Source: a virus. From it: 48,586 nt of DNA. Under the pieces are notes generated by a model, which did no database searches, had not been told where the DNA came from, and saw only the letters and a list, made by a program, of their open reading frames with translations. A program made the position numbers and the translations under genes. Positions 5,512 to 45,200 of the stretch are shown in pieces; position 1 is the stretch's first letter, and each line of letters starts with the position of its first letter. The stretch lies in the IMG/VR virus record IMGVR_UViG_3300029915_000040; one strand, given 5' to 3'.

Positions 5512-7284
5512 TTAGTTCAGCCCCGAATTTGCTTGGCTTGCGAACTGCCATTCGAGCGATTGTTTCATGTCCTTGGCGATTCCTGGCGCGTCAGTTGCGG
5601 CGGTGTACACTTTGACTTCACCGATTTGCACGCTGCTGCTTTGGCTCGATGATGCGTTTGCCGGGTTGCGGAGATAGCTCATCAAGCCAGCGGTATAATT
5701 TCCCGCGCCAGCAACGCCCATCAGCGATTGAGCGTACGCCCCACGCGCCGAAGCCTCTCCTGAAGCATCCGCAGGACGCAAGTCTAAGCGCGACACGATG
5801 CTGGCCGCATCAGCAGCGTTCGTGGCCCTGCGCAGTTGGTTGCCAGCTTTTTTCTCGGGTCCGACCGTAAGCTCCCAATTTTTGAAAGCCATCTGCTCTT
5901 CTGGGCTGGCATCACGCAAGTCTTTTCCAAACACGCGCTTGAATGTAGCCTGCCGGTCAGGATGCCATTGTGCAAGCCCTACAGCCTGCCCATGGTCGCC
6001 AATAGCGTTTGCATTCCCCTGGCTCTCCCTCATCAAGTTCGCTGCGATGCCAGCGGATTGCTCAGGAGTCCATCCGAGTTTCTGAAAGAACTCCTGCATT
6101 TGTTTGGCAGAGAGGTTCTTCCCGCGAATTCCCAAAGCATCCCCGATAGCCTGGATTCCAGCAGTGAAATCATCAGAGAACTTGTGCCCGGTCACCCGTT
6201 CATACCAGCGAGTATAAGCGTCGTAGAGGCCGACAAGGCCATCCTTCAATGCGTCCATGGCATCTAGTGTGGATTTAATTCCTGGTTCCCATTTTCCCCA
6301 ATCAATCAGCGAATCCCCGCCACGCTTCCATGTCTCATAATCGTCCCACAATAGAGCAATTCCTGCTGCAAGCCCAAGGATAGCTAGAACAGTTAGATTG
6401 AGTGGCATCGATTTCAAAGCAATCGCTCCCAACCCCACAGCAACAATTTTCAAGAATTTTTCTATGAACTGCTCATTATCCTTGCACCAATCACCGAAAG
6501 TGCTAAGCAGTGTGAGAATCTTTTCAATAGCGGGCGCATTTTTAAGCAAGAGATCGCGCCCAAACGCAGCGAATGTCTGCTTTACCTGCTCGATGGACTT
6601 CTTGAGTTTGACTCCCTCTTCCGCCTGCTTTGCGGTTACGGCATTCGATTCCTTTTGGCGGCGCAAGGTCAGTTCCAACTCTTTACGGCCAGTGAGCAGG
6701 AGATTCATGGTCCCCTGGTCAATGCCCATCATCTGGCCCATATTGTTGGCTGTGGCGCGTCCCTTGATCCTCACAATGCGCTCAAAAGCATCAGCCAGGC
6801 CCAACAGCAATTGATCGGGTTTCTGCGAGGTCAAAGCTCCCGTTCCCATGCCAAGCGCCGAGAGAAACGGAATCAGGCCAGATTGCCCTGTCAAAGCGAA
6901 TTCGGTCTGCGCCTTGGAGAGCATCGCCAGCGTGCCCTGTACGCCCGAGGCGCTCCCGCCGATCTGTTCCGCTGCCTGCGACCATGCCGAGATCGTAGAA
7001 ACGCCCACGCCGAGGTTCTGCGATAGGCGCTGAAGCTGAGAATTCGATTCAGCAAGGTCAACAATGAACGTCTTGATTGCGGCAGTTCCGCCAATGACAG
7101 CGAGAAACTTCATGGCGCTTCCGGCCATGTCGGTCAGGCCCTTGTTTACCTCTTTGGTACTCTTCGCTATGTTCTTGTTTTCGTTGTCTACGTCTTTGAA
7201 TTTACGAGTGATCGCAGGGATTTTGGCCGTCGCGTTGTCTTGGATGCCGAGGGTGACGAGCAACGAATCGATGATGGTCGGCAT
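5512..7284 (-). CDS. Tape measure protein with a C-terminal lysozyme-like domain
   Basis: 590-aa ORF after the chaperone pair. The N-terminal part is helical with TM-like segments. The C-terminal motif ANLMRESQGNANAIGDHGQAVGLAQWHPDRQ resembles the phage tail lysozyme family. Confidence 0.7.
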   Translation of the reverse strand: MPTIIDSLLVTLGIQDNATAKIPAITRKFKDVDNENKNIAKSTKEVNKGLTDMAGSAMKFLAVIGGTAAIKTFIVDLAESNSQLQRLSQNLGVGVSTISAWSQAAEQIGGSASGVQGTLAMLSKAQTEFALTGQSGLIPFLSALGMGTGALTSQKPDQLLLGLADAFERIVRIKGRATANNMGQMMGIDQGTMNLLLTGRKELELTLRRQKESNAVTAKQAEEGVKLKKSIEQVKQTFAAFGRDLLLKNAPAIEKILTLLSTFGDWCKDNEQFIEKFLKIVAVGLGAIALKSMPLNLTVLAILGLAAGIALLWDDYETWKRGGDSLIDWGKWEPGIKSTLDAMDALKDGLVGLYDAYTRWYERVTGHKFSDDFTAGIQAIGDALGIRGKNLSAKQMQEFFQKLGWTPEQSAGIAANLMRESQGNANAIGDHGQAVGLAQWHPDRQATFKRVFGKDLRDASPEEQMAFKNWELTVGPEKKAGNQLRRATNAADAASIVSRLDLRPADASGEASARGAYAQSLMGVAGAGNYTAGLMSYLRNPANASSSQSSSVQIGEVKVYTAATDAPGIAKDMKQSLEWQFASQANSGLN

Positions 7285-8344: not shown

Positions 8345-10108
8345 CTACATCACATCTACAGATTGAAGTGTGAGCTTCTGGACTGCCCCGCCGTCAGTGA
8401 ACCAGAAATTCTGAATCGGAGTACCGCGTAAAGCGCGAATCTCTGGCCCTGGGTCAAGAATCTGCAAGTACCATCCCTGCGTCGAAATGGCAGATGCAAC
8501 CGGCTGACCTGCGGCCATGTTGATCTCTGCAATCTCCGCAGCCGACAGCGTTACTCCGGCCTTGATTGCTCCGAAGTTGATTGCGGCATTGATCGTGTCC
8601 AGCTTCGATGCCCGGAGCAGGCCGTATCCAGTTTCATCGTAGGGAACACTACCGACTTGCGTCAGAAGGTTCATGTCCGCAACCTGGAACTGATCGCACA
8701 GCCAGATCGAATTGATGAACGGGTCAATCCACTCCCACACTCCGGGGACTTGCCCAGGGGCGAAGAAGGACCACTGATTTGCCTTGCTGGCCCACGTTCC
8801 GTAGAAGTTGTACCCGTTGGCGACAAGATTGGTTTTCAGTTGGAGGTTATTCACTCCAACCGTCAGACCGGCTTGAGACTTGAACATGAACGTCACGCGC
8901 CCGTTGGCTTGGCTGAAATTTACCGAGGCAATCGCGCCAAGCAAAAACGCCGCATGAGTAAGCAGCAATTGCGCCAGCGTCATGCCCGCGTTGTAGGCCA
9001 GATTCGGGTCGCCTGAAATGCAGCATCCGCCGTTGTACGCGGCGACTGTGGCAAGATGGCCGAAGCAGGTAGTCGAACCCTGGATGAGAGCCTGTGCGTC
9101 AGTATCCCACCCGGCGTACTCGTATGGGTTGTATTCTTGCGCGTTGCTCCATGCAAAGAACGCCATCTTGTCAGCCGTGACCGGTTCCCACATCGTCGTG
9201 AATCCGCAAAAGTTCTGCGTGATAGCGACGACATTGTTCATCGCACTCGCCGGTGTATCAGCAACAGCGCCCGCCGAGACAATCGCACCCGTCGCTGAGG
9301 TAAAGCCAAGAGACGCGGCCAGCGTGCCCGTAGCGAACGCGGCGCTTGACGCCAGACCCGTGATGCCGGAAGTGATGATGAACGCGCTCTGCGTGCTGCT
9401 CCACGTCACCGTGACGGCAGTAGCATCGCCAGTCATAGATTCAGGCGTGGAAACTACTGCCGAGGTCGCGGAGAGAGAATACGTTCCGGCGCCGCCTGGA
9501 GTGGTGCCGGTCAACTGAGCGGTAATCACAGGAGAGTTGGTTACGCCAGAACCTACGATGGTCTGACCCACCGCAAACGATCCGGTAACTGTTCCGCCAA
9601 CCGTGAGCGTCGTCCCTGCGATTGTGCAGAGCGTTGCCGTCGCCTCAGCAGGAAGACTGGTATTCAGTCCGGTAGCGATGGCGCTGGCGACCTGCGATTG
9701 ACTCGTTAGGCCGGTAAACGTGAGGCCGGTAGCCGTCCGGCTGTAGCCGTCGATAACCACCGTCAACGTGCCGGTCAATGCTTGCCATGCCGCTTCCGTG
9801 AGAGATGCCAGATTGCCAGACTGCAACCATGCGGCCCGCGCAGTCAGATTGAAAGCCGCGAAGAGCATGGCACTCGGTACGGCTGTGCGACCGGTGTAGC
9901 CGGCGAAGTAGATCGGGGCCAGCGCCGCTTCCGCCGATGCCGCTCCGAAGAAGGATGCAACAGCCGCCGCACTCGCAAAGCTGTATACCTTCCCGGCTGG
10001 CATCAAAGGGTTCTGAGTCAGGAACAATCCGCTGAGCAGCGCATTGGAACCGGAGCTGCTAATCACGTTCGGAATTACGCCTACGATGTCGCTTGCCGGG
10101 ATGCTCAT
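8345..10108 (-). CDS. Tail sheath protein (DUF3383-like)
   Basis: I trimmed the track ORF to the ATG at 10108 (MSIPASDIVGVIPNV...), which makes an ATGA overlap with the upstream stop. 587 aa. The conserved C-terminal half contains GWYLQILDPGPEIRALRGTPIQNFWFTDGGAVQKL. Confidence 0.7.
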   Translation of the reverse strand: MSIPASDIVGVIPNVISSSGSNALLSGLFLTQNPLMPAGKVYSFASAAAVASFFGAASAEAALAPIYFAGYTGRTAVPSAMLFAAFNLTARAAWLQSGNLASLTEAAWQALTGTLTVVIDGYSRTATGLTFTGLTSQSQVASAIATGLNTSLPAEATATLCTIAGTTLTVGGTVTGSFAVGQTIVGSGVTNSPVITAQLTGTTPGGAGTYSLSATSAVVSTPESMTGDATAVTVTWSSTQSAFIITSGITGLASSAAFATGTLAASLGFTSATGAIVSAGAVADTPASAMNNVVAITQNFCGFTTMWEPVTADKMAFFAWSNAQEYNPYEYAGWDTDAQALIQGSTTCFGHLATVAAYNGGCCISGDPNLAYNAGMTLAQLLLTHAAFLLGAIASVNFSQANGRVTFMFKSQAGLTVGVNNLQLKTNLVANGYNFYGTWASKANQWSFFAPGQVPGVWEWIDPFINSIWLCDQFQVADMNLLTQVGSVPYDETGYGLLRASKLDTINAAINFGAIKAGVTLSAAEIAEINMAAGQPVASAISTQGWYLQILDPGPEIRALRGTPIQNFWFTDGGAVQKLTLQSVDVM

Positions 10109-10620
10109 AGAATCTCCTTGAAGATGTTCATGCTCAGCGCCGTGGCGCTCTGTTGAGGAACGATCACATTTGGATTGTATTGCAATGAAGCGGTAAGGGT
10201 CCAACGCTTTTCATATTGCTCTTCGCCGTTGACTAGAGGAGCCTGGTGGCCGTCAGAGCAATAGAGCGGTTGGATGTTCGCGGGAAATTGGGCAGTCGCA
10301 TAGGGAGTACGCCAGACGCCTTTAACAGCAGCGCAGTACTCGCCAGATGCAGTCCCGTAGAAATCAACTTGGATGTCGATACGCTTGGGCGAAAGATAAC
10401 CGACCTGCTGGTTTACCTTGTCATTTGTGCCCGTGGGAGTCTCAAGATCAACCTGAAGGATTTCCGTCAACTCAACGAAGGCAGAAACAGGCATCGGAAC
10501 GCGATTAACCTGCGCACGGACAATCTGCGTAGCACCCACAAATGGCTGGAGAAACGCGCCCAGGGCCTCGATTACCGTATCGACCGCGATAGAGGAAACG
10601 TACTCGACAGGGGCGCTCAT
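10105..10620 (-). CDS. Neck/tail-completion-like protein
   Basis: Trimmed to the ATG at 10620 (MSAPVEYVSS...), with ATGA overlaps at both ends. It lies just upstream of the sheath gene. Confidence 0.45.
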   Translation of the reverse strand: MSAPVEYVSSIAVDTVIEALGAFLQPFVGATQIVRAQVNRVPMPVSAFVELTEILQVDLETPTGTNDKVNQQVGYLSPKRIDIQVDFYGTASGEYCAAVKGVWRTPYATAQFPANIQPLYCSDGHQAPLVNGEEQYEKRWTLTASLQYNPNVIVPQQSATALSMNIFKEIL

Positions 10621-10988
10621 GCTGGCACCTGCATAACGAGGGCTGCGCGAGTCCAGAGCGGCCACTGCTCTAGGATTGCTACCGTAAGCCACGTATCGCT
10701 TCCGATAGTCACGAGATCGCCGCCTTTGGAATGCGCCCTCACAACAGCATCAAGTGAACCGCGCAGGATGATCGATTGCGTGGCGTCTTGGATGTTAAGG
10801 CCGTCAAGGTGCCGGAGGTCTGCCGCAGTCAAGGCTTGAACCTGTGCGAACCCAGTGACCGGCGTTCCATACGCGGGAACCTGCTTTAGGCCTGCGCCTA
10901 TAGCGTATCCGGTAGACGGAGACACCGTAACCGATATGTTTGGGTTCACTGTGTTCGTCGCACTGTTTGCAATGCCGCGCAAGTCCAT
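10617..10988 (-). CDS. Head-tail joining region protein (unknown family)
   Basis: Trimmed to the ATG at 10988 (MDLRGIANSATNTVNPN...), preceded by a G-rich RBS. 123 aa. Confidence 0.5.
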   Translation of the reverse strand: MDLRGIANSATNTVNPNISVTVSPSTGYAIGAGLKQVPAYGTPVTGFAQVQALTAADLRHLDGLNIQDATQSIILRGSLDAVVRAHSKGGDLVTIGSDTWLTVAILEQWPLWTRAALVMQVPA

Positions 10989-11002
10989 CAATACCCCCCC
11001 CT

Positions 11003-11030
11003 TTGACACATTGCGTAATGTGTGTATACT
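11003..11030 (+). promoter_or_regulatory. Sigma70-type promoter with an embedded operator-like palindrome, driving the plus-strand cassette
   Basis: TTGACA (11003..11008), a 16-nt spacer, then TATACT (11025..11030). The spacer holds the inverted repeat ACACATT-GCGT-AATGTGT. Confidence 0.5.
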
Positions 11031-11052
11031 GAAATTGAGGCAGATTTCTGAA

Positions 11053-11259
11053 ATGAGAATCGTTGAGGTTGTACCTGATCGTCCATGCGCTTGTGGCTCA
11101 CTAGATTTTGAATTGACCGGATGCGCTCAACTTGCAACCGTAGACAAATACAGCGCGTGCGTATGTTGCGGTTGCGGGCTGTCCTACGCTTTGGCAACCC
11201 CATTGCATCCCGGTAAGCCAAAGCGCCCCATTGCACATGTTGTAGAAATGGGCAAATGA
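11053..11259 (+). CDS. Small Cys-rich protein (68 aa), first gene of the opposite-strand cassette
   Basis: ATG at 11053 downstream of the promoter. Sequence MRIVEVVPDRPCACGSLDFELTGC...ACVCCGCG. ATGA overlap with the next ORF. Confidence 0.45.
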   Translation: MRIVEVVPDRPCACGSLDFELTGCAQLATVDKYSACVCCGCGLSYALATPLHPGKPKRPIAHVVEMGK

Positions 11260-11624
11260 ACGCAACCAAAGCAGCCCGCATTCTTCGCGCCGCGCAAACC
11301 AAACCGCCCCGCTCTCCCGTTCTACACGTATGCCCAAAGTGCGAAGCGGCAATTCTTGGAACACGCGCTTTCAGAGCACATAAACCCGAGTGCAGAAAGG
11401 AACACATGGCAGTTGATGAGAAGTTCATTATCCGAGGAATCAAAGCACAGTTGCTTGTACTTAGAAAGGGAATTCTCGCCAAAGGGAAAACTGTTCCCAG
11501 CGATGCCGTTTTGCGGCTAAAGATTTTCGACCAAGCCGATGAGAGCGGGTTACAGACGTGCGATGAATACCGCGTCCCGTTTTCCATTCTCGAAGGGTTC
11601 AAGCCGGGAGATGTGAACACGTAG
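11256..11624 (+). CDS. Hypothetical protein with a CxxC...HxxxxC zinc-finger-like motif (122 aa), second cassette gene
   Basis: Balanced, protein-like composition (HVCPKCEAAILGTRAFRAHKPEC; DEKFIIRGIKAQLLVLRKGILAKGK). Confidence 0.55.
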   Translation: MNATKAARILRAAQTKPPRSPVLHVCPKCEAAILGTRAFRAHKPECRKEHMAVDEKFIIRGIKAQLLVLRKGILAKGKTVPSDAVLRLKIFDQADESGLQTCDEYRVPFSILEGFKPGDVNT

Positions 11625-11781
11625 GTTTTTGAGTGTGAGTTCCTTCTGGGGCAGTCGTGCGTGGAAGCGTGTCCATCTATAGTGGACGCGGCCCATTTAC
11701 CACGGGGAACGGTTAAGCGCAGCCCATCACCGAAGATTGCAAGATAGGTGATGTTCCCCCGCTTAATTGAAGCTGCTCCAC

Positions 11782-12363
11782 TCATTTACGTTCCTCATAG
11801 TCTTGGGTTTTCGCGTTAAGCACCATCACCGCGCCAGAATTTACGCGGTATCCAGTGCTGTTAAGCATTTCGCCAGTCCAGATCAATGGCTTGGCCTGAG
11901 TTCCGCTAGCCATTCCAAGATTCTTTCTCCCTTTTACTACATCCGCTTGCGCTTGCAATACATCGCGGGCACGAATATTCTGGGGATTATTTTTGAACTT
12001 AAAGCGAAGCCGTAGGGTCGTAGGAGAAAGGGGAGGATCATTAGTATCGATGATGCTTTGCTTCAATGCGCCGTCAATTTCCTCTCCCATATACGCAAGG
12101 GTATGAGCGCCGTCAAAGTTGCTGGCCTTGAGTTCTTGCGCCATCATCTTCGGCCATTGCGGAGAATCCTTCGCTACCATCGTGCGAAAGAAAGGACGCG
12201 GAGGAGCAGGGAAGCGGCCCTTGTGCCCAAACTCATTCCAGAACGCAATTGGAGCCTGTTCGCTGTCGATGAAACCAATATCCACAGAGCCGTGTACCTT
12301 CTTTGCGATCTCTTTCAGCTTCGCAGCGACGGCATCGGACAGCAGGATGGTTTTAGCAGCCAC
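11782..12363 (-). CDS. Head-tail joining protein (HK97 gp10-like)
   Basis: Trimmed to the GTG at 12363, preceded by GAGGAA. The motif FWNEFGHKGRFPAPPRPFFRT is typical of the gp10 family. Confidence 0.6.
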   Translation of the reverse strand: MAAKTILLSDAVAAKLKEIAKKVHGSVDIGFIDSEQAPIAFWNEFGHKGRFPAPPRPFFRTMVAKDSPQWPKMMAQELKASNFDGAHTLAYMGEEIDGALKQSIIDTNDPPLSPTTLRLRFKFKNNPQNIRARDVLQAQADVVKGRKNLGMASGTQAKPLIWTGEMLNSTGYRVNSGAVMVLNAKTQDYEERK

Positions 12364-12523
12364 AGGATTCCTCGTCAAGGTAGATCGGCATGTACTCAAC
12401 CACATCGGGGCCGATATTCAATACGACTGCTGAAACGGTTGGCAGTTCCAGTTCCCCGTTCTCAATGCGCTCCAGATCGCGCTTCAATTCCGAAGCGTCC
12501 AATGAGAGCGTAACCGAGATCAT
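12353..12523 (-). CDS. Small hypothetical protein (56 aa)
   Basis: ATG at 12523 in an ATGA overlap with the upstream stop. Sequence MISVTLSLDASELKRDLERIENGELELP... Confidence 0.45.
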   Translation of the reverse strand: MISVTLSLDASELKRDLERIENGELELPTVSAVVLNIGPDVVEYMPIYLDEESCGC

Positions 12524-13347: not shown

Positions 13348-14199
13348 TCAAGGAGCGGTGATTGCCGCGCTGAGGGGCACCGAAGTGCCCTCCTGTTGAA
13401 GTGCCTTTTCTCGGCTGTAACGAATACGCTGTGCAGCCGACATTTTCAACCTGACTTCTTCTGGCATCCCAGCCTCAAAACGATTGCGCTGAGATTGCGC
13501 CATTCTTGCCCGTACTTCTGGAGTGCAACGTTCACGCGCTGCAACCCGCATACGTGCTCTTGTCTCTTTGGAAATCTCTCGGCCCTGTTGAACCTGAGAC
13601 ATTTTCATTCGTGTCTCGGCTGTGTGATGATGCCCCGCAAAGTGCTTATTACCGAGCGGAGCGCCTGCGCCGACTTCTTTGAGTTTTGCCGAAATCTGCG
13701 CTCTCATTTCCGGCGTCATGCGCTCTTTCGCAGATGCCGATAACCTTGCGCATACTTCGGGAGAATGCTGGTGGCCGGGTTTGAAACCTGATCCGTTTGC
13801 TTTAGATGCAGCCGAAAGTCTAGCTCTCATCTCAGTTGTCATTCTCTTTTTTGTTCGTTCGGAATTACGCATATTTTCTTCAGGAGTAGCTTTTCTTCCG
13901 GATACCCCCTCACCGCCATCAGTGAGATTTCCTAGAATTCCTGTGCGATTATCCAAACGCCCATACTTGGCGATTTGACGCTTTTCCTCGGAGAAGGCGT
14001 CCTGCTCAGAAAGGTTTTGAGCAACAAAGATAATCATCGCTGGATTCTGCGGAGTCCGGATGCGATTATGTCTCATGTAGGCTCTCATGCCCCTTCCTTT
14101 GCCAACGTAGTACGGTGTTCCTGCTGCCCCGTGCTTCGTCGTATTCTCACGGATGTACAGATAAACGTAGAAGTTATCCATACATCCATGATACACCAA
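13348..14199 (-). CDS. Free-standing GIY-YIG homing endonuclease with about 8 NUMOD3-like repeats
   Basis: GIY-YIG motifs are FYVYLYIRE...TPYYVGKGRG...E. These are followed by repeated units of the form (T/S)xExRxKMSxAxxxR. The start may be the ATG at 14181. Confidence 0.8.
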   Translation of the reverse strand: MVYHGCMDNFYVYLYIRENTTKHGAAGTPYYVGKGRGMRAYMRHNRIRTPQNPAMIIFVAQNLSEQDAFSEEKRQIAKYGRLDNRTGILGNLTDGGEGVSGRKATPEENMRNSERTKKRMTTEMRARLSAASKANGSGFKPGHQHSPEVCARLSASAKERMTPEMRAQISAKLKEVGAGAPLGNKHFAGHHHTAETRMKMSQVQQGREISKETRARMRVAARERCTPEVRARMAQSQRNRFEAGMPEEVRLKMSAAQRIRYSREKALQQEGTSVPLSAAITAP

Positions 14200-14227: not shown

Positions 14228-15274
14228 CTAAACCCCAAGTAATGAAGAGATTAGGAATGGGCGGTATAAGACGCACCCCCACGTGCCCTGGCTTTGCTTC
14301 TGCTTGAAGCTGGACAGATCGATCTTGACCGGATGTGCACGTAGCTTCTCAGTGAACGCCGTGGTGGCCGTGCGCTGCCCCTGCACTTCGTCCGCGATCA
14401 ACTGCACCAGTTCGCCAGAGGCGGTGTGGTATTCCGGCGCCGTCTCGATCTTCATCTTCGGGAAGTTCTTCTTGAGCATGTCCTGCACATTGACGTTGTA
14501 AGTGTTCGTCAAGGTCAGATACACCTGAGCCTCGGGCGACATTGCCAGCGTCAGCGGAGAGTCCATGTCAAGATCGACAAGGCCATTCGCTTGGGAGACA
14601 AGCTGCCCATATAGCGCCTTGATGTCGTTGTAGACATAGATTGCGCCGTTCGGGTCAGTGGCCTTCTGTGCCCACGTCACCAGCCCGCCAGCCGAGATCG
14701 GCGCGATGGGAGCGGAGAGCGACGGGTCGTTGAGCAGGCCATAGTTCGCCAGCCCAGCGACACCTAAGAAGTAGCTCTTGTTCTGAAACTTGTTCAGCGT
14801 CAGAACCGAAGCGATCCTCTGCCGGTTGGCCCAGTCGATACGCGCGAGGCCCATCTTGTCGAGTTCGCGCTCTCCCCACTGAGTGATGACCTGGTAGGTG
14901 TACGACTGGCGCTGCACCCAGTTCACGTTCGCGCCGGCGATGCCCGTCTCGGAATAGTCGCCATACGAGGAAACCATGCCGGTCGATTCAACGATGGGGA
15001 ACATTGCAGTCTCCAGCGTCCAATCGCCCTTCTTGGTCTCTTCGCCAACGATCTCCGTCGCCTTCATCGGGGCCACAAGGACTTCAATCACCTTGGGGTC
15101 GATGTAGGTTGACAGAAACGCAGGGATGCCGCTGTTCGAGACCGTGACCAACTGGGGCTGAGCATCCATCGCCAGCAAGCCGCCACGCTCCTTTTCGGTC
15201 TGCTGCAACTGGGCATCCACGCCCATGAAATGAACGCCCCATTTCCGCGATACTGCTTCAAGATTGCGATCCAT
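14228..15274 (-). CDS. Major capsid protein (DUF2184-type, HK97 fold)
   Basis: 348-aa ORF with an AAGGAG RBS. It is conserved along its length and sits after the scaffold-like and decoration-like genes. Confidence 0.7.
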   Translation of the reverse strand: MDRNLEAVSRKWGVHFMGVDAQLQQTEKERGGLLAMDAQPQLVTVSNSGIPAFLSTYIDPKVIEVLVAPMKATEIVGEETKKGDWTLETAMFPIVESTGMVSSYGDYSETGIAGANVNWVQRQSYTYQVITQWGERELDKMGLARIDWANRQRIASVLTLNKFQNKSYFLGVAGLANYGLLNDPSLSAPIAPISAGGLVTWAQKATDPNGAIYVYNDIKALYGQLVSQANGLVDLDMDSPLTLAMSPEAQVYLTLTNTYNVNVQDMLKKNFPKMKIETAPEYHTASGELVQLIADEVQGQRTATTAFTEKLRAHPVKIDLSSFKQKQSQGTWGCVLYRPFLISSLLGV

Positions 15275-16472: not shown

Positions 16473-17882
16473 TCACATCACCTGGATTGAACGAGCCGCG
16501 CCGGGGAACTTCTCTTCCACCGAAACCGCATCGAATGCTTGCCGCACGGCGGGCTTGGAAGCCTGCTGTGCGAGATTGAACAGCGCCCGAAGAGCCGGAA
16601 CGCCAGTGACGCCTTCCCGGTCAACCTTCATCTGGTCGAGCGCAAAGCCGTAAATTTCATCGGCTGAGTCCTGGGCCAGAACATCGCCCACCACAGGCCG
16701 CACAGCCCGACGCGCTTCATCGGCGGCGCGAAGATCAGCCTTGAATTCGTCCATCGCGTGCTTCATGCCATCCTCAGCTTTCTTCTTTTCCGCTTCTTCG
16801 GAATCCTTGGCGGAGCAGTCCTTGGCCTTTTTGTCTTTGGCCCGCTTCTCCAGCCGTTCCTTGCGCTCTTCCTCGGACTCCTCTTCGGAATCATCGGCGC
16901 GGCGCTTTTCACGCTCATAGCGGGCTTTCTTCTCTTCGAGAGACTCTTCTTCGCCGTCCTTCCCCTTATGGTCGGACTCGCCTTCCTCTTCCTTGGCCCA
17001 TTCCTCGAAGGAAAGGTCTTTGGCGGTCTTGCCGTCTTTGGCCTTCTTGTCCTTGGCTTCCTTTTCCTTCTTCTCGCGTTCCTTCTTTTCCTCTTCGGAC
17101 TCTTCCTCCGATTCGGCATCCTTCGCGGCCTGCATCGCGGCCAGTGTTTCAGGCTTGCGCAGTTCCGCGTCCATGGCCAGCAGCTTCGGCTCAAGAGACG
17201 CAATATCGCACTTCTTGCGCGTCAGACCGATCACCAGAGGCTTGAGGGCCGCATCTTGAGCCAGCTTCGGAGATGCAGCGCAGAGAATTGCGTAAAGTGC
17301 TTTGCCAAACTTCGTTTCTGTCATTTTCGTCTCCAGTTTGCTGTCTGCCGCCTTCACATCTGATCCGGCGCGTCCTGCTTTGACCAGGGCAACGTGATTA
17401 CCCTGAATGTCCCTCATTACACCGTCGTACCGCTGCCCCTCGTACATCCCAGGCGTCATGTCTGCCCGGTAGCTGTAGGAGGATGAGAGTTCTTGAACTG
17501 TTTCGGTTTCCACCCCGGCGATTGCTTCCGCGTCCCAGATGCACATATCCGCCATCAGATATGGCGCTTCGAAGTCCACATTTGATCCGATTGTCCCGGC
17601 GATGTACTCCTGCTTCGGATCGTCCGCATTCACGGCGATGTGCTTGAACATCAACTGCTTGTTTTTGAAGGATGAAGCAGACTTTGCCAACTCGCCTGGG
17701 TCGCGCAGCAGGTAATACACCCGCTCCAGGTCCAGTCCCAACTCTTCCGATTTGGGGATTTCGCGCCCGTAATATGGGTTTACTGTCGCCTTGGAGATAG
17801 GCGTGCGGTCGATATGCAGCATCTTGTCGCTGTCGTATCGCCGGTTCTTCAGGGCTGCGTCGCAAGCGATCTCCGTAGGCAT
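16473..17882 (-). CDS. DUF2213-like head scaffold/protease-like protein with a long Lys/Glu-rich region
   Basis: 469-aa ORF with a conserved N-terminal domain (YYGREIP...LMADMCIWD...HVALV) and a central EEESEEEKKEREKKEKEAKDKKAKD low-complexity stretch. Confidence 0.6.
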   Translation of the reverse strand: MPTEIACDAALKNRRYDSDKMLHIDRTPISKATVNPYYGREIPKSEELGLDLERVYYLLRDPGELAKSASSFKNKQLMFKHIAVNADDPKQEYIAGTIGSNVDFEAPYLMADMCIWDAEAIAGVETETVQELSSSYSYRADMTPGMYEGQRYDGVMRDIQGNHVALVKAGRAGSDVKAADSKLETKMTETKFGKALYAILCAASPKLAQDAALKPLVIGLTRKKCDIASLEPKLLAMDAELRKPETLAAMQAAKDAESEEESEEEKKEREKKEKEAKDKKAKDGKTAKDLSFEEWAKEEEGESDHKGKDGEEESLEEKKARYEREKRRADDSEEESEEERKERLEKRAKDKKAKDCSAKDSEEAEKKKAEDGMKHAMDEFKADLRAADEARRAVRPVVGDVLAQDSADEIYGFALDQMKVDREGVTGVPALRALFNLAQQASKPAVRQAFDAVSVEEKFPGAARSIQVM

Positions 17883-18037
17883 CTTGTTTCATAGCCTTTC
17901 ACTACGGATTAGCCAGCGCAAGTCAACGGTTGAAAATGAACGGCAATACTATATATTTATATCTATGGGAAGACCACGGAATGAAAAATGTTCACGCGGG
18001 CATCGACTGAAGTCTGGAAAGACAAGACGGCGCTGCC

Positions 18038-18862
18038 CTATTTGCGAGGCTGCGCGGCTTCGGGTTTTTCGGCAATCGTCCACGGTAACACAGACCGGCC
18101 TTGGCACCGGCACCCAATCAATTCACCCGGAAGAATCCACTTCTTAACTGCCGAGTCGTACATCCCCTTGGCAATCTCGTACCGCTTGCCGTTCATTGCG
18201 ACGTGCGTAGGGCGGGGCGTCTTTCCTGCGTGGGAATGAAGCCAGATTCCCTCTTTAATCCCCAGCTCAGTCTGGCGAGTCCGCTGCACCACTGCATTCG
18301 CTTTGTTGCTCTGGTCCCTTGCGATCAGCCATGCCCGGTTGGATGCCACCTTGTAGCGCCCGCGAATCTCCTCAGCCATCGCCCGCACGTTGCGCCCTGA
18401 CGTGTAGTTGCGCATCACGATGCCCTCAACCTCTTGCAGGTATTGCGCGGGAATCGAGCGAATCAGGCCCACATTTTCAGCCAGAGAAGCCTCGAACGCC
18501 TCACGCATGGCCGGGGTGAGCGTGAACTCAATCGACCAGCCCGCATCACGTAGGGCTTGCCGCATGGCGTTATCTGTACCTTGGAACTGGTTCTTGAGAA
18601 ACGAATCGGCCACCGTGGTAGCCATCTCATCGAACTTCTTCTGCCAGCGTTCCCACAGTTCACGCAGTTCTTCGAGAATCTCCTCCACCGGGGAAGCATC
18701 CACCGCCATCGCAGGAGGATCGCTCTTGCGCCTTGCCGTAACCCAATACTCGACGCTGTGCGCCATCTCCGCGACGAGCTTCAGTATCCGCCGATGATAA
18801 CGGTTTCGAGTGCCGATGTTCGGCCAGATCGCACGGATTACTGTTGGCTTTTTGGGGAGCAT
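18038..18862 (-). CDS. Minor head protein (Phage Mu F / SPP1 gp7 family)
   Basis: 274-aa ORF with a C-terminal motif (HAGKTPRPTHVAMNGKRY...GELIGCRCQ). Confidence 0.7.
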   Translation of the reverse strand: MLPKKPTVIRAIWPNIGTRNRYHRRILKLVAEMAHSVEYWVTARRKSDPPAMAVDASPVEEILEELRELWERWQKKFDEMATTVADSFLKNQFQGTDNAMRQALRDAGWSIEFTLTPAMREAFEASLAENVGLIRSIPAQYLQEVEGIVMRNYTSGRNVRAMAEEIRGRYKVASNRAWLIARDQSNKANAVVQRTRQTELGIKEGIWLHSHAGKTPRPTHVAMNGKRYEIAKGMYDSAVKKWILPGELIGCRCQGRSVLPWTIAEKPEAAQPRK

Positions 18863-18984
18863 TTGGGTTCCGATTGATAGAGCGGTGGAATTCCGAGATG
18901 GTGATGCGTGGTCTTCACCAGAAGATGAATGTCCACCAGTTCAAGTTTGGTCAATTGCCGTGGAACCGGGTATCCGTTGCTCAT
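18838..18984 (-). CDS. Small ORF (48 aa) filling the portal to Mu-F gap
   Basis: Hand-translated as MSNGYPVPRQLTKLELVDIHLLVKTTHHHLGIPPLYQSEPKCSPKSQQ. ATGA overlap with the portal stop; it ends inside the Mu-F start region. It is below the track cutoff. Confidence 0.3.
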   Translation of the reverse strand: MSNGYPVPRQLTKLELVDIHLLVKTTHHHLGIPPLYQSEPKCSPKSQQ

Positions 18985-20465
18985 TCTTTTCCATCCTCTA
19001 ACTGCTTTGGTTCTTCTTCCGCAGGCGATTCAATTACCTTGTCTATGTCAAGGCCGGTGTATCCCGACTCCGGATCACGCGCCAGCTTCTCGCGCTCTTC
19101 CTGTGGGTCGATCACGCCTCTATCAATCAGGTTTCCAGCCCGCGTGCTGTCGTTCATGCGGATGGTCGAAAGCTGCTCTTCCGTCATCTGATAGAGCGGA
19201 TTGAACGTAATACCGATTTCGGGATCGATTGATCCGTACAACGATAGCTGGACGATCTTCAGAATCGTTTCGATGGGGTTGCGGGCATGGGCCTCTTGGT
19301 TCGCTCGAATCCAGTCCCTCCACGCGCCCATCTCGCCCTCGGCCACATTGCCGAATCCAGATGGGGATACGCCGGTCATAATCACGGACGGCTCCCTGCT
19401 GGCGGTACACATCTGCTCCTGAGCCTGTGCCTGAAGCTCATGCAGGCCACCCAGGGGAACGGCAAGCTGCTCCAGTTCCTCGCGGTCCTTGTCTAGCACC
19501 ATGACGCCCTTATTGCTGCGCGTAGCCGTAAACAGCTTGATACGGGCGAACAGGCCAGTACCGTCATCGCCTCCCGTAAGCACCTGGTCCATGGCCGTCT
19601 TGAGGCTAAGGATTGAAAAGTTGTTGATGAGGTCTGAAACGCTCTGCCTGGTGCGCAGCCAGTTGTTAACATACGGCTCGACAAGCTGCGAGAGGCTGAT
19701 ACCGCTGAAATTGAACGCTGGCTTGAAGATGTCAGGCACAGGCCGCGTGACAATCCGAAGCATCCTGGTGGCGTCCCAACGCTGGCCCATGACCCACCAG
19801 CCGGACGGGTTATAGAAGTCCTTGCGCGACGGGTCCAGCGCGTTGTACATGAGGGGCGTAGTCCAGATCGGCTCGACGTTCTTGAATCCGTTCAAGCTGT
19901 CTTTCTTGATGGTCTTTGGGCTGATAGATAGCGGTACTTGTATATCCGCGCCATTGATATTGATGAGGATTTGCCCTGTTCCGTAGAAAGCATCGTCCTC
20001 GATAGCCTTGCGGATTAGCGCCTGAATATCCAGTTCGCGGAACGCCTGCTCCAGTTCGGTGATCTTGTCTTTGGTCGCTTCGCCTGCTGTCTCGCTGCTG
20101 GTGAACTCGATCCACTCCCGCGTCATCTCATTTGCCAGCGCCGCCGCCATGTTGCGGTATTCGACTCGCAGAGCCAACAGCGCTAGGTACGGATAGCCGG
20201 GGAAGCCCTCGACATTGCTGTAGGCGTAGAGTTGAGAGCCAAACTCGGCCCCGGGCATGGCATCCATTGCCAGCTTCACATCGCTCTGGACCTGTGCCTT
20301 TACGCCGGCCGGCACCACGCCAGGCAGGATGTCAGGAGGCCTAATCGGGAACTGTGGGCGGGGTACTTCCTCCATCGCCTTGTAGAGAGCCGCGCGGATA
20401 CCGGCACTCGTTGGAATCGCTTTCGCTGGACGCCCTGCGTTTTCTCGTTTTCCACCGCTCGGCAT
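18981..20465 (-). CDS. Portal protein (DUF1073-type)
   Basis: Trimmed to the ATG at 20465 (MPSGGKRENAGRP...), preceded by AAGGAAA. It lies downstream of terL. A TTG at 20498 is an alternative start. Confidence 0.7.
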   Translation of the reverse strand: MPSGGKRENAGRPAKAIPTSAGIRAALYKAMEEVPRPQFPIRPPDILPGVVPAGVKAQVQSDVKLAMDAMPGAEFGSQLYAYSNVEGFPGYPYLALLALRVEYRNMAAALANEMTREWIEFTSSETAGEATKDKITELEQAFRELDIQALIRKAIEDDAFYGTGQILININGADIQVPLSISPKTIKKDSLNGFKNVEPIWTTPLMYNALDPSRKDFYNPSGWWVMGQRWDATRMLRIVTRPVPDIFKPAFNFSGISLSQLVEPYVNNWLRTRQSVSDLINNFSILSLKTAMDQVLTGGDDGTGLFARIKLFTATRSNKGVMVLDKDREELEQLAVPLGGLHELQAQAQEQMCTASREPSVIMTGVSPSGFGNVAEGEMGAWRDWIRANQEAHARNPIETILKIVQLSLYGSIDPEIGITFNPLYQMTEEQLSTIRMNDSTRAGNLIDRGVIDPQEEREKLARDPESGYTGLDIDKVIESPAEEEPKQLEDGKE

Positions 20466-20494
20466 TTTGATTTCCTTTGATTTCCTGCAACTAT

Positions 20495-20731
20495 TCAAAC
20501 TACCACATTGTACCGAGTATGTACCAGTTCCCGCATCTCCTCCCGCGTAAAGTAGCCGTCTGCGAAAAAATCTCCCATCTTTGTCCAGCCGTTGCGGTAG
20601 TCAAACTGTGATGCACCGCGCCAAGAGGGGAAGCTGCTGCGCAGGCCGTCCCGCAGCGCAAGTTGGCTCTTTGTGTACATGATCGGTTTGGCCTCGGCAA
20701 TTATTTCCTCTTCAGACCTGCGCTTTCTCAT
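20495..20731 (-). CDS. Hypothetical protein (78 aa)
   Basis: Its ATG directly follows the terL stop (TAAATG). The sequence is protein-like. Confidence 0.5.
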   Translation of the reverse strand: MRKRRSEEEIIAEAKPIMYTKSQLALRDGLRSSFPSWRGASQFDYRNGWTKMGDFFADGYFTREEMRELVHTRYNVVV

Positions 20732-42297: not shown

Positions 42298-45200
42298 CTA
42301 CTGCATCTGGTAAAGCGTGGCGCTCCATCTGTAGGTTGGGGTGCCTGTGACGCCGCTCAAAAATAGTTCGACTTGAATAGCCGCTGCGTCGCTCCAGAAC
42401 GGTTCGCAGGCTTTAGCTCCGGCCCATTGCGTAGTCGTCGTACCGAGATTCGCCACCACCTGACCATTAGCACCTGTGTTGACCGCGCCAGCGTCGGTAT
42501 GCCCATCCGTGGTATAGCTGCGATAGACCTCGGCCTGTGTCTGAGCACTCGGGGCGACGGTGATTCTCATGTCTCCGCAGAGCAGAAATTCGCCTGCGCT
42601 TCCCGGCGTGTAGATCGTGGTTAGTCCGGTTGAAGTTGTTCCTGAGTAAAGCGAGCTTGCTACTTTGGCAACTGGTTTCCACATTCCACCTGTACCGAGC
42701 AAAGAAGCCGCGGTACCACTGGTGTTGTTTGTCAGGGTGGCCCCGCTGGCGTCCACAAGCTGCCCATTGGAGTTAGTGCCTACTACGGTCTTACTGGTCG
42801 GAACCGCTGCCCCATTTATCGCCTTCACCGTGGCCAACACAGGCGTTGACGCATTGCCCTGCGCCGTCACATCACCATTTAGCGCATAGATCGCCGTCGC
42901 GCTCGTGTAGTCAATGGCTGCCGTGGTGGTCTGGGCGTAGCTAGAAATGCCGATGGATTTATAGGATAACTGCGATTCAGACACCAACGCCGTCATCGTG
43001 TCAGTGCCAAAAGCCGCTGGTTTTGCGGTAAAAAGAACCCATTGGGTACTCGTAGCGGCAACCGACGTTGTGAAATTAAAGCATGACCATGATCCAACTG
43101 TAAGAGTCACTTGAGCGTTTCCGTATCCGACCACACCAAGGAACACAACTGGATTCGTGATCGAACCGCCGCCGATGGCGGTTGCAGCAGTAGGCTTGAT
43201 ACAGACCCTTTCGTAAGCCATATGAGGGTTTGTGGCTCCCGAGACGGTCTGGATCAGTTCTGAATAGGCGGTATTGGTCAAATCTCCGTTCAGATTAAAC
43301 GCGACTTGTTGCGTAGCGTAACCATTGGGATCGAGCACGGCACTGGTTGTCACAACCGGATTGCTCCCCAATCCCGAATGAGAAGGAACCCACGCGCCAT
43401 TGGTCAGATCACCTGAATAAAGAAGTTGGTTCTGAGGCGTAGTCGATGAGGGTGCCCAAGGGATTGCGCCCTTGACTCCGTTCGCCATTACGCCATACTG
43501 CAAAGGCTGAGGTCCGGTTGAAGTAGTCTCAATGTGAGGGTACAAACCAGAAGCATTGTCGGCTCCCCCAAAGAGAAGATCCACGCTATCAGAATAGGTT
43601 GAAACCGTGCTCCCAACGATGACGAACCGGAGTAGATCGGTAGTCGCAGCGGTACTCGGGGGCGTTGACACGGACGGTCTGATCCATCCGTTGTCAGGGT
43701 AGTTAGGATTAGCCCACCCAATGTCATACTCTTCACCGTTTGCCCCGTCTGCGACGTCGATCTTGAATACCACGTTGCCGCCGCTCACGTAGCTACACGT
43801 CGTATTAGGCGCCGCCACCGTCACGGTATTGGTGCCTGTTGCGGTGACCGTCGCCGCAGTTGCGTTGCAGGAGGACGGGTTGACGTTTGCGACCGTGTAA
43901 GGTTTGCCGCTTACTGCGCCAGCCGTTGTCAAGCCACCGCAGGAAGCGATTTCGGAAAGCGTATAGGTGATGGTAGCTCCTGTGCCCGACCCGCTGACGC
44001 TGGCACCTGTTACCTGCACATTCGACTTCAGCCACGCCGATCCTACCACCGGATGCGGGTTTGTGAGACCCGTCAAAGACTGCGTAATGCTGGAACTGTC
44101 TCCTGTCGTTGTTCCCCCATTCAGTGCAAGTACAAGGCACGAAACTGTACTTGTGTTCTGCGGATCGTTGGGCGTTGCCACGCCGCTCACGTTCGTTGGT
44201 GCAGGCAAACTACCGGCACCAAGGTTGGCCGGAACCCAAGAAAGACACGTTAAATCCTCTGAGCAAGTCAGGCGGTTTTCCAGCACACCGACCGGGGCCG
44301 CACCTTCGATGGACTTGTTGTTCTCCCACGCAGTAGTGCCGGGTCCGACGATCTGTGAGACAACAGGAGATTTACTTCCGCTGATCCAGTTGTTCCGCCC
44401 CGGCCTCGTCAAAGTCCCTGCGTTGTAAATTAAAGCATTTCCGGTCGATGCCGGAGGCTCAAACATATTCCACTCGACACTCACGTTGGTACTGGTTGCA
44501 CCGATATAGAGAGGCGACACCGGCACAGTTGGCACCTGATCTACACCCAGCGTGTTGCCCATAACCAGAGCATTTCCCACGGCGGAGGTCCCGTCTCCCA
44601 CTGTGAGCGTTCCGGTCGTGCAGCCTTGCGAGAAGTATTGCGATATGCCAAGCTCGTTGTAGATGAAGCTCGCCCCATAACCTCCGGCATAGAGAATGGG
44701 ACAGTCTCCCGAGGTCACGCTGTTGTGCTCAAAGAGCGTATCGACCGCCCCGCTGATCTCGGAGTAGTAAATCCCATGCGGAGCGTTGATGTGGTTGTGC
44801 CGGATTAGGTTCGTGTCCCCGGCATTTCGCATGTAGATTCCAGCGGACATGAAGTTGTCGGCAATCGTGGAGACGAATAAACCACCGTTGGAGTTTTGTG
44901 CGGACTGGTTTGGAGCCACGCCGCCCGAAGTCGCATTGTTCATAAAAAAGGAATAGCCGGAAGTGGTCCCGAAGAATCGGTTGTTAATCCAGCGATTCAT
45001 AAATCCGCCCTGATTGCTGGCGTCAAAGCGGAGCCAGTAGCGCACGTTCGCGCCGCCCGGAAGCCAAGTATTCGGCGCAGATGCTTCCACAAATGTTTGG
45101 TTTTGATTCGTCACATTCTGGTAGTAGTATCCATCACCGCCAAGCCCGCTGCTATATGTACCCGGCTTGATCAAGAAGCCGTCCATCCCACTTGCCACGT

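Follow-up and report, generated by a model that had tools for sequence, protein, structure and literature searches.

An antisense accessory cassette in a phage late operon and the stop-free frame that bridges it, possibly kept for translation rather than for a product

In the late operon of an IMG/VR virus (record IMGVR_UViG_3300029915_000040; the 48,586-nt stretch analyzed here is called the window), a small group of plus-strand genes lies between two minus-strand structural genes, and the minus strand opposite them stays open from one structural gene to the next. Long antisense frames can have several origins: the frame may encode a second protein, may be left over from a lost gene, or may be open by chance. 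A further possibility, raised in an earlier note made from the letters of the window, is that it is maintained to let ribosomes traverse the insert. We asked which of these best accounts for the locus, whose features are collected in Table 1.

Table 1. Features of the insert and its two flanking genes (window coordinates).
Feature	Position	Strand	Description
Downstream late gene	10617..10988	-	"Head protein," 123 aa; PHROG 1912
Bridging frame	10988..11785	-	265 codons + TGA, ATG-initiated; crosses the insert from end to end on the strand of the late operon
G-run GGGGGGGG	10994..11001	-	Shine-Dalgarno-like; 5 nt upstream of the downstream-gene ATG; insert-supplied
Cassette promoter (predicted)	11003..11030	+	Sigma-70 type: TTGACA (11003-11008), 16-nt spacer, TATACT (11025-11030); 11/12 consensus positions
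Operator-like palindrome	11006-11023		ACACATT-GCGT-AATGTGT; within the cassette promoter
Shine-Dalgarno AATTGAGG	11033-11040	+	Downstream of the cassette promoter
p68	11053..11259	+	Gene for a Cys-rich small protein, 68 aa; purifying selection in its own frame
p122	11256..11624	+	122 aa, zinc-finger/p72 fusion; different frame from p68
Zinc-finger module of p122	11256..11405	+	C-x2-C-x12-H-x4-C; core module common to all cassette variants
p72 module of p122	11406..11624	+	Own internal Shine-Dalgarno AAAGGAA (11396-11402), ATG at 11406
Structured-RNA candidate	11625..11790	+	~150 nt, 3' end of cassette; at least 90% identity
Upstream late gene	11782..12405	-	Tail completion/Neck1; PHROG 222

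The insert and its genes

Comparison with related phages identified the DNA between the Neck1 and PHROG 1912 genes as an accessory insert in opposite orientation. Of 48 related phage contigs, 35 have the flanking genes overlapping directly (TGATG or TAATG), so that relatives lacking the insert bear out the moron-like, opposite-strand insertion that the earlier note had proposed. The downstream PHROG 1912 gene was located in 51 related loci; the insert was seen only in the window and in L009, L042, L055/56, L060, L061, and L062. Other inserts, too, favor the Neck1/PHROG 1912 junction, a hotspot that holds a complete GIY-YIG gene in L011 and, in L007 and L047, small genes on the late strand. Inserts one junction further along, in L027 and L004, proved to be ordinary late-strand genes and so gave no extra test.

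Several searches were made for further copies. GenBank phages searched with the insert DNA, p122, and the 265-aa product of the bridging frame gave no match, and a scan of metagenome contigs with zinc-finger and p72 profiles yielded nothing that could be confirmed. Further scans and a promoter-pattern scan of viral contigs returned L009 and L042 again and nothing more, and the pattern scan of genome contigs was empty. A scan of the genome contigs with the 123-aa head protein recovered one relative, in a MAG, which is without the insert.

The composition of the insert differs from that of the surrounding genome. Its GC content is 0.513, against 0.55 to 0.57 on either side, and the codon log-odds of its two plus-strand genes are -0.15 and +0.03, against 0.19 to 0.24 in neighboring genes. 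The cassette carries its own predicted promoter, and this promoter, its palindrome, and the AATTGAGG Shine-Dalgarno sequence are conserved nearly base for base across six variants of the insert. The genes p68 and p122 are joined through an ATGA overlap. The coordinates and differing frames of the two plus-strand genes, the promoter, and the palindrome had been described in the earlier note and were confirmed here, as were the bridging frame and the overlaps at its two ends. A scan of positions 10500 to 12500 for intrinsic terminators found no terminator-like site; at its 3' end the cassette has the structured element described below.

The product of p122 is built from two modules that recur in other phages and at other positions with their ORF boundaries respected. 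The zinc-finger module also exists free-standing, as homologues of 57 to 88 aa, and its ligand residues (C26, C29, H42, and C46) are invariant in nine homologues. Precomputed database annotation assigns PF13913, which we take to be the C2HC-type zinc finger family, to two distant zinc-finger homologues only; p122 of the window lies below every Pfam cut-off. The AF2 model of p122 (pLDDT 75) gives the module as a beta-hairpin plus helix, and a Foldseek search of this model against PDB found no match below E = 1. In other contigs, gene calls give the p72 module as a 72-aa protein by itself (P0002 to P0004), and a homologue with 74% identity occurs in L052, a different phage with a different cassette. 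Pfam, PHROG, and PADLOC searches found an endonuclease on neither strand of the window insert, and PADLOC returned nothing significant for it. P0001 also matched giant repeat proteins (NACHT, SpaA, and Big_5), hits that were set aside as spurious repeat matches.

The segment from 11625 to 11785, which had been taken for plain noncoding flank, is instead part of a conserved element with a predicted plus-strand RNA structure. It stays at least 90% identical where the adjacent sequence diverges. Of 57 predicted pairs, 5 show compensatory changes, and many are G.U pairs possible on the plus strand only. The folding energies likewise favor that strand (MFE -62.4, z = -3.4; for the late strand, -52.9, z = -2.25). 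The candidate is multi-helix and without a U-tract, and Rfam covariance models run against positions 10900 to 11900 gave no match at E ≤ 10.

The bridging frame and its recurrence

The bridging frame lies antisense to the promoter, p68, p122, and the structured-RNA candidate, and it is joined to both neighbors in the manner of a coupled gene. Its ATG (11785-11783) shares ATGA (11782-11785) with the TGA of the upstream gene, and its TGA (10990-10988) shares TGATG (10986-10990) with the ATG of the downstream gene (10988). Neighboring junctions of the operon show the same type of stop/start overlap, and ATGA, TGATG, or TAATG overlaps bound the frame at both ends in every variant. At each end, in all variants, the overlap is accompanied by a Shine-Dalgarno sequence inside the upstream ORF. 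For the bridging ATG this is a native GAGG (11793-11796) within the last codons of the Neck1 gene, 6 to 9 nt 5' of the ATG and conserved across cassette variants; the string TATGAGG at the Neck1 gene end is invariant in all of them. For the downstream gene it is the G-run supplied by the insert, found in 6/6 cassette variants and in the scar in L012. Chains of mini-ORFs are kept in L009 and in the scars in L012 and L013.

The frame is open from end to end in six structural variants of the insert, at 265 codons in the window, 335 in L009, 186 in L042, 215 in L060, 243 in L061, and 145 in L062. In all six it contains 0 stops, versus 5 to 14 in each other late-strand frame; across the window insert the other two frames have 11 and 8. 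The bridging frame played no part in the discovery of L009, L042, and L062; L060 and L061 were found through its own translation.

Protein, relic, or chance

The late-strand frame might encode a functional protein, perhaps a virion component or a regulator that is basic, disordered, and Cys-rich, so that both strands would code. It has a Shine-Dalgarno sequence, an ATG, and coupled ends, it recurs in six variants, and functional antiparallel overlapping genes have been reported in Pseudomonas phage Fc02 (PMC9936078). Selection on the two strands can be compared in the p68 region only, because the two frames have their third codon positions in common over the zinc-finger/p72 part; in the zinc-finger region the constraints on the late frame and the plus-strand gene are inseparable. 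Across four variants, p68 has a dN/dS of 0.07 to 0.25 at a dS of 0.4 to 2.7. Its substitutions number 22, 11, and 8 at codon positions 3, 1, and 2. Over the same region the late frame has a dN/dS of 1.7 to 2.4, versus 0.17 to 0.25 for p68, and the dS of p68 (0.755) matches that of a nonoverlapped neighboring gene (0.65), i.e., it is not depressed by a second coding layer. Purifying selection was thus found on the protein of one strand and not on those of both, in the one region where this can be tested. In the first 53 bridging codons, which are antisense to the structured element, substitutions are distributed 10/8/10 by codon position, without the third-position excess expected of a constrained protein.

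The predicted product also argues against a second protein. The 265-aa sequence is rich in R, S, C, and H, and its AF2 model (pLDDT 32.4, pTM 0.18) agrees with the earlier impression that it does not look like a folded protein, whereas p122 reached a pLDDT of 75. A conserved structural protein was looked for in Pfam and PHROG, and PADLOC was searched as well; no family was matched. The sole homologues of the product are translations of the same frame in variants of the same insert, and among these its length varies (145 to 335 aa) and entire modules are exchanged, one variant (L042) even starting with a GIY-YIG fragment. Coding potential, which the earlier note had suggested comparing on the two strands, was low for the bridging frame (codon log-odds of -0.167, versus 0.01 to 0.38 for real genes), but did not single out the plus-strand genes, whose scores are also weak. 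The bridging frame is thus, by these comparisons, without protein-level constraint in the p68 region, where the frames are separable. We therefore regard dual coding as unlikely, and it seems to us rather more probable than not that the frame was selected for being translatable and not for what it encodes.

The frame could also be a historical relic: a real gene on the late strand, for instance one for a GIY-YIG homing endonuclease, may once have been inserted here, and its remains have yet to decay. The genes found at this junction in L011, L007, and L047 would be candidates for such an ancestor, the bridging frame of L042 starts with a canonical 47-aa GIY-YIG N-terminus, and the window itself has a GIY-YIG gene at 13348..14199. 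Most of the frame, however, is antisense to p72 and zinc-finger modules that are known elsewhere as plus-strand genes, and the divergence between variants (the dS of 0.4 to 2.7 given above) is long, yet zero stops have arisen. Nor does the window frame have an endonuclease signature: a kinship of its N-terminus with GIY-YIG proteins was considered and dropped, as the 265-aa product matched no such profile in Pfam or PHROG. A relic is very unlikely on this evidence.

Finally, the frame might be an ordinary antisense ORF opposite real genes that drew attention by being the longest in the window. Antisense open runs of 150 to 231 codons do lie opposite other genes of the window (231 codons being the longest opposite 28 reference genes), and the case was picked out by a reader who had already seen the frame. 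We therefore shuffled the synonymous codons of both plus-strand genes and the dinucleotides of the flanks in 20,000 trials, the kind of simulation that the earlier note had proposed. The window frame stayed open in 1e-4 to 8e-4 of the shuffles of genes plus flanks, in 0.3 to 1.4% when the genes alone were shuffled, and in 8% when the flanks alone were. Antisense stop densities in 28 other window genes (0.049 and 0.031 per codon in the two frame relations) give a similar P of ~7e-4. Over the variants, synonymous-shuffle P values run from 0.0004 to 0.085, mostly at or below 0.02.

The variants add to this. The conditional simulation chain (0.015 × 0.001 × 0.093 × 0.022 × 0.061 × 0.057) gives a P of ~1e-10, a value that comes from only six variants, all of them short metagenomic contigs with shared ancestry, and from null models that leave out some context effects. 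The three variants found independently of the frame (L009, 0.001; L042, 0.061; L062, 0.057) together give 3.5e-6. The frame, moreover, passes through the change of frame between p68 and p122 and through both flanks and ends exactly on the neighbors' stop and start, and p72 and zinc-finger homologues in other contexts contain stops in the corresponding frames. The openness of the bridging frame is thus more than chance, as the earlier note had supposed in calling it maintained, and an accidental shadow ORF is highly improbable.

The reverse proposal, which the earlier note gave as its alternative, takes the plus-strand ORFs as spurious and the minus-strand ORF alone as a real gene. It draws on gene callers, some of which pick the late-strand frame (P0005 to P0007), and on the weak codon scores of the plus-strand ORFs, and is almost certainly wrong given the purifying selection on p68, the recurrence of the p72 and zinc-finger modules, the conserved promoter and Shine-Dalgarno sequence, and the better-predicted fold of p122; the plus-strand cassette ORFs are real genes.

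A possible ribosome relay and its known counterparts

The explanation that we favor is that the frame is kept open so that late-operon ribosomes can cross the insert, which we hold to be probable as a whole. An accessory cassette comprising a predicted sigma-70 promoter with an operator-like palindrome, a Shine-Dalgarno sequence, the p68 gene, the C2HC zinc-finger/p72 gene, and a 3' structured-RNA candidate has been inserted backwards, exactly at the stop/start overlap that joins two structural genes in a myovirus-like phage. On the late mRNA, a frame begins at the ATG behind the native Shine-Dalgarno sequence of the displaced junction, crosses the entire insert, and terminates on the ATG of the following gene. 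Ribosomes of the late operon would thereby keep translating through an insert of 0.45 to 1 kb, preserving the stop-start relay to the neck and tail genes, and their cover may shield the late transcript from Rho-dependent polarity, from nucleases, or from pairing with the convergent cassette RNA. Selection would act against stop codons only and not on the encoded protein. That this family of antisense cassettes acquired, or was filtered for, such "translational transparency," with ribosome read-through alone being selected, we consider slightly better than an even bet.

The operon context is consistent with this proposal. From 17882 down to 710 there is no untranslated gap longer than 28 nt if the bridging frame is counted; otherwise a 797-nt untranslated stretch would interrupt a 17-kb run that is free of gaps. 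The same cassette family occurs at the junction between the Mu_F and PF09979 genes (L052 and L064), which in the window is a natural gap of 155 nt, and there no late frame is open (12 to 25 stops per frame). Across the insert, the late RNA shows C>G stretches: C/G reaches 2.0 at ~11700-11560, which ranks at the operon's 99th percentile or higher, and 1.8 at ~11100-11000. Coupling or the avoidance of Rho polarity is our best inference as to why the frame would be open, favored by its absence from cassettes of this family whose junction is natively uncoupled and by the C>G stretches of the late RNA; its translation, and the need for it, are likewise deduced from sequence. It is important to note that the insert gives the downstream gene a Shine-Dalgarno sequence, the G-run, so that initiation there need not obviously depend on coupling. 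Relatives of the cassette elsewhere in the late operon, including one at another junction in L067 (7 to 13 stops per late frame), do without a bridging frame, and the requirement is therefore not general. Translation would also have a cost, the synthesis at late levels of an unstructured, Cys/Arg-rich polypeptide of 145 to 335 aa, which counts against reading the frame as translated.

If the explanation is right, foreign DNA could sit backwards in a coupled structural operon without breaking it, and the need for unbroken translation in such operons would be strong enough to shape hundreds of otherwise meaningless codons. There would then be a class of ORFs, hundreds of codons long, kept for the act of translation, and mobile or accessory DNA would have a new way to cut its cost, by a logic analogous to that of introns and inteins. 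Antisense inserts tolerated in coupled operons would have a simple sequence signature. Long ORFs opposite small accessory genes may then be "relay" frames, neither genes nor pure artifacts, with consequences for phage annotation and for the rules of inserting payloads into late operons.

Among known systems, the insert most resembles morons, the independent accessory transcription units found between conserved late-operon genes of, e.g., HK97/HK022-type phages. Like them, it lies between genes that are adjacent in relatives, has its own conserved putative promoter and an atypical composition, and varies in content among related phages. Unlike them, it is oriented against the late operon, within a block of overlapping stop/start junctions, and has a candidate structured RNA in place of an intrinsic terminator. 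We know of no description of morons in which the antisense strand is kept translatable. Translational coupling through overlapping stops and starts (ATGA, TGATG) is known in phage and bacterial operons, and the bridging frame uses such overlaps at both ends and the displaced junction's own Shine-Dalgarno sequence at its start; the coupled "gene" here, however, apparently has no selected product and forms a relay of 145 to 335 codons across foreign antisense DNA. In Rho-dependent polarity, mRNA is protected by translating ribosomes, and an untranslated C>G stretch is the classic substrate. Without the frame, the insert would present such a stretch, judged by composition only, although related cassettes at other junctions tolerate untranslated gaps.

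Free-standing homing endonuclease genes also insert between conserved phage genes. The one in L011 occupies the same junction, with exact stop/start insertion and coupling retained, and in L042 the bridging frame begins with a GIY-YIG fragment; the window insert differs in having no endonuclease on either strand. In Pseudomonas phage Fc02, olg1 and gene 10 overlap in antiparallel orientation, and exclusion activity is reported for both products (PMC9936078). The two loci are alike in having long ORFs on both strands, one of them belonging to a lytic operon and its partner to a unit of lysogeny or accessory type, and they part in that the late-strand product of the window would be without protein-level constraint (in the p68 region) or a predicted fold.

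Leader peptides and upstream ORFs are cases in which translation and not the product matters; they are regulatory and run from a few to a few dozen codons. The bridging frame seems to share with them selection for the act of translation and not for a peptide sequence, but it is of gene length, lies antisense to real genes, and would be apparently constitutive within its operon.

Insert at a hotspot junction of the late operon

The myovirus-type structural operon runs on the minus (late) strand from ∼24.8 kb to 0.7 kb, and the nearest GenBank phages share only ∼51% identity at the protein level. Consecutive ORFs between 17882 and 710 are separated by untranslated gaps of ≤28 nt, with ATGA-type overlaps at many junctions, if the 265-codon late-strand frame of the insert (the bridging frame) is included; leaving it out creates one untranslated stretch of 797 nt. 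The bridging frame begins with an ATG at 11785, sharing an ATGA overlap with the Neck1 stop codon, and ends at a TGA (10990-10988) that overlaps the ATG of the downstream gene (TGATG). The only untranslated gaps of >100 nt in the structural region are 17883-18037, 18863-18980, and 20499-20731, which may be promoter sites; relatives have antisense cassettes at the first of these. The GIY-YIG endonuclease has NUMOD3-like repeats and lies directly downstream of the major head gene, within the operon. A 1,661-aa ORF elsewhere in the window matched no PHROG family at E ≤ 1e-5.

Features of the window and related cassettes in other phages
Feature	Coordinates	Strand	Remarks
1,661-aa ORF	42298..47283	-	
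Portal	18981..20498	-	
Mu F-like	18038..18862	-	
PF09979 protease/scaffold	16473..17882	-	
Major head protein	14228..15274	-	
GIY-YIG homing endonuclease	13348..14199	-	
Tail completion/Neck1	11782..12405	-	PHROG 222
Insert	10988..11785	-	
Conserved 3' element	11625-11790	+	∼150 nt
p122	11256..11624	+	122 aa
p68	11053..11259	+	68 aa
Predicted promoter	11003-11030	+	TTGACA, 16 nt, TATACT
"Head protein" (downstream gene)	10617..10988	-	PHROG 1912
Neck terminator	10105..10692	-	PF23961
Sheath	8345..10204	-	
Tape measure	5512..7284	-	
Related cassettes	L052:3697-5427; L064:962-1793; L067:3704-4724		antisense to late operon

Scanning with the downstream 123-aa protein yielded 51 viral contigs, 48 of which contained both flanking genes. 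The Neck1 stop directly overlaps the downstream ATG (TGATG or TAATG) in 35 of these 48, and the Shine-Dalgarno sequence (SD; GAGG or GGTGAG) of this native junction lies in the final Neck1 codons. Inserted sequence occupies the junction in 12 contigs: a complete GIY-YIG endonuclease gene (L011, 4343-5001, homologous to that of the window), late-strand genes of ∼74 aa (L007/8 and L047/48), tiny coupled mini-ORFs (L013, L040/41, and L046), a 123-nt scar (L012), or two other architectures of the window's cassette (L009 and L042). Database searches added contigs L055/56, L060, L061, and L062. The insert is thus an insertion, as the earlier note had supposed in calling it moron-like, and lies at a hotspot junction.

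The L012 scar (1902-2026) holds a second copy of the downstream gene's opening 8 codons, joined to a Neck1-tail-like peptide; a 16-codon mini-ORF comes next and brings together sequences that L042 has ∼450 nt from each other. Overlapping stops and starts chain all of these parts, and two chained mini-ORFs are retained. In L009, Neck1 stops 14 codons early and its tail is a separate mini-ORF (MVLNAKTQDYEERK, 3953-3994) that relays from the shortened Neck1 through TGATG and ATGA overlaps; the same 14 codons are fused to Neck1 in the window. The sole genome-collection relative of the downstream gene (L071, CAWCWZ010000043.1; 56% identity) has a split Neck1 and no insert; it is a 146-kb contig in a MAG labeled Actinomycetes, an uncertain host assignment.

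Coding on the two strands of the insert

The description of the frame, overlaps, plus-strand ORFs, promoter, and palindrome in the earlier note was confirmed in full on reexamination. The two plus-strand genes, p68 and p122, are joined by an ATGA overlap, lie in different reading frames, and follow a predicted promoter matching 11 of 12 consensus positions, with the palindrome ACACATT-GCGT-AATGTGT in its spacer. Promoter, palindrome, and the AATTGAGG SD are nearly base-for-base identical across six cassette variants. An SD lies 6 to 9 nt upstream of the bridging ATG in all six (GAGG in five, GGAGG in L042), and TATGAGG is invariant in this region of six aligned sequences. Each variant also has overlapping stops and starts at the two ends of the frame. 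The insert itself also brings a G-run SD for the downstream gene.

The 265-aa late-strand product is rich in R, S, C, and H (R, 11.3% versus 4.3% in the proteome; C, 4.2% versus 1.3%) and, as the earlier note had expected, does not look folded (AlphaFold2 pLDDT, 32.4; pTM, 0.18). Family searches with it returned no match, and its database relatives were only the same frame in cassette variants. Variants differ freely in the length of this product and in the modules it contains. In the p68 region, where third positions differ between strands, late-frame dN/dS was 1.7 to 2.4. Synonymous divergence of p68 (dS, 0.755) is as large as that of the adjacent nonoverlapped gene (0.65). Judged by these rates, the late-strand peptide is not under selection, with the proviso that the two frames share third positions over the zinc-finger part of p122. 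A functional product would be likeliest there, but the late-frame dN/dS and low pLDDT make one improbable overall; a decaying late-strand gene is poorly supported. In L042, the late-strand frame opens with a canonical 47-aa GIY-YIG N terminus (MSGIYAIVSPSGNLYIGN...RWNQHRSALRKGVHH, 4441-4583), fused in frame to the zinc-finger antisense and belonging to a different endonuclease family from that of L011 and the window.

That the minus ORF is the sole gene, with the plus ORFs spurious, is likewise poorly supported. In its own frame, p68 is under purifying selection (dN/dS, 0.07 to 0.25 at dS 0.4 to 2.7; four variants), and its substitutions between the window and L009 fall 22/11/8 at codon positions 3/1/2. 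The modules of p122 recur elsewhere: its first 50 aa, a zinc finger (C-x2-C-x12-H-x4-C), are also known as free-standing proteins of 57 to 88 aa, and its last 72 aa (p72), with their own SD and ATG (11406), are annotated elsewhere as a protein in their own right, with a 74% homologue in another cassette of another phage. Among variants, modules are shuffled at ORF boundaries. The plus-strand genes are, on this sequence evidence, real; AlphaFold2 gave p122 a pLDDT of 74.9 from only five sequences. Their products could not be placed in any functional family. Window positions 11500-11830 are ∼99% identical to L009 (p72 dS, 0.08) beside a p68, zinc finger, and flanking gene at dS 0.65 to 0.76, a pattern suggesting recent recombination inside the cassette.

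The right-hand flank, one of the noncoding parts in the earlier note, is not spacer but a conserved element and a predicted structured RNA. It is ≥90% identical across variants, against down to ∼50% in neighboring sequence, and is not present in L042 and L062. The plus strand is predicted to form a multihelix fold (MFE, −62.4 kcal/mol; z, −3.4; 0/200 shuffles as good), compared with −52.9 (z, −2.25) for the late strand, on which its roughly ten G.U pairs would be C.A. Five pairs show compensatory changes (reached in 0/500 shuffles), all from a single divergent sequence, and Rfam gave no match. Substitutions fall 10/8/10 across late-frame codon positions; because a third-position excess is absent, the element is conserved as nucleotides and not as peptide.

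Openness of the late-strand frame

The late-strand frame is open far beyond chance expectation, and pure chance is a poorly supported explanation. When the genes were shuffled synonymously and the flanks shuffled too, as the earlier note had proposed, here by dinucleotides, only 1e-4 to 8e-4 of trials kept the frame free of stops (P, 0.005 to 0.015 with fixed flanks). Antisense stop densities in 28 window genes (0.049 and 0.031 per codon in the two relevant frame relations) give 7e-4, and the longest antisense open run against these genes was 231 codons. In every cassette architecture, the equivalent frame runs uninterrupted from the stop of Neck1 to the start codon of the downstream gene.

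Late-strand stops and plus-strand content of the six variants, with conditional P
Variant	Plus-strand content	Bridging codons	Stops	Stops in other late frames	P
Window	p68 + p122	265	0	11, 8	0.015
L009	extra 71-aa N-terminal module	335	0	14, 11	0.001
L042	N-terminal module of L009 + finger, nothing else	186	0	5, 6	0.061
L060	p68 + finger only	215	0	11, 10	0.022
L061	p68 + finger + unrelated 55-aa gene	243	0	10, 7	0.093
L062	new N-terminal module + finger	145	0	12, 9	0.057

Kinship among the six variants, all on short metagenomic contigs, was handled by simulating each conditional on its nearest relative, retaining the observed count of synonymous differences and redrawing replaced or new codons. 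The product of the six P values is ∼1e-10, under approximate null models, and that for L009, L042, and L062, which were found independently of the frame, is 3.5e-6.

Same-family cassettes (zinc-finger or p72 homologue with a similar TTGAC(A/G)-palindrome promoter) also occupy other late-operon junctions, again in antisense orientation: L052 and L064/65 have one where the Mu F-like gene meets the PF09979 gene, and L067/68 has one at yet another junction. In these cassettes, an open late-strand frame is absent, with 7 to 25 stops in each frame; neither the zinc-finger nor the p72 coding sequence is inherently open. The window itself has a natural, AT-rich untranslated gap of 155 nt at its Mu F/PF09979 junction. 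The open frame thus goes with a native stop/start overlap and not with a naturally uncoupled junction.

Proposed ribosome traversal and known systems

At the level of sequence, stop codons are selected against in one particular frame of the late strand, and the translation start and stop signals of this frame plug into the operon relay. The simplest explanation is that of the earlier note, that ribosomes need to cross the insert. The benefit might be a supply of ribosomes to the start of the next gene, or a late transcript shielded from Rho or RNases or kept from pairing with convergent cassette RNA. The insert's own G-run SD argues that downstream initiation need not rely on coupling, and C>G segments of the late RNA over the insert (C/G up to 2.0; ≥99th percentile of the operon) would fit a polarity risk.

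Our literature search turned up no account of an antisense frame of gene length kept solely for traversal. The nearest analogue, in phage Fc02, is a pair of antiparallel overlapping genes whose products are both reported active (PMC9936078). The cassette agrees with the moron concept, but no intrinsic terminator was found at it; the ends of the bridging frame are a textbook case of translational coupling. We rate frame and cassette together as a combination of these known kinds, with a substantial chance that the bridging frame represents a new principle.
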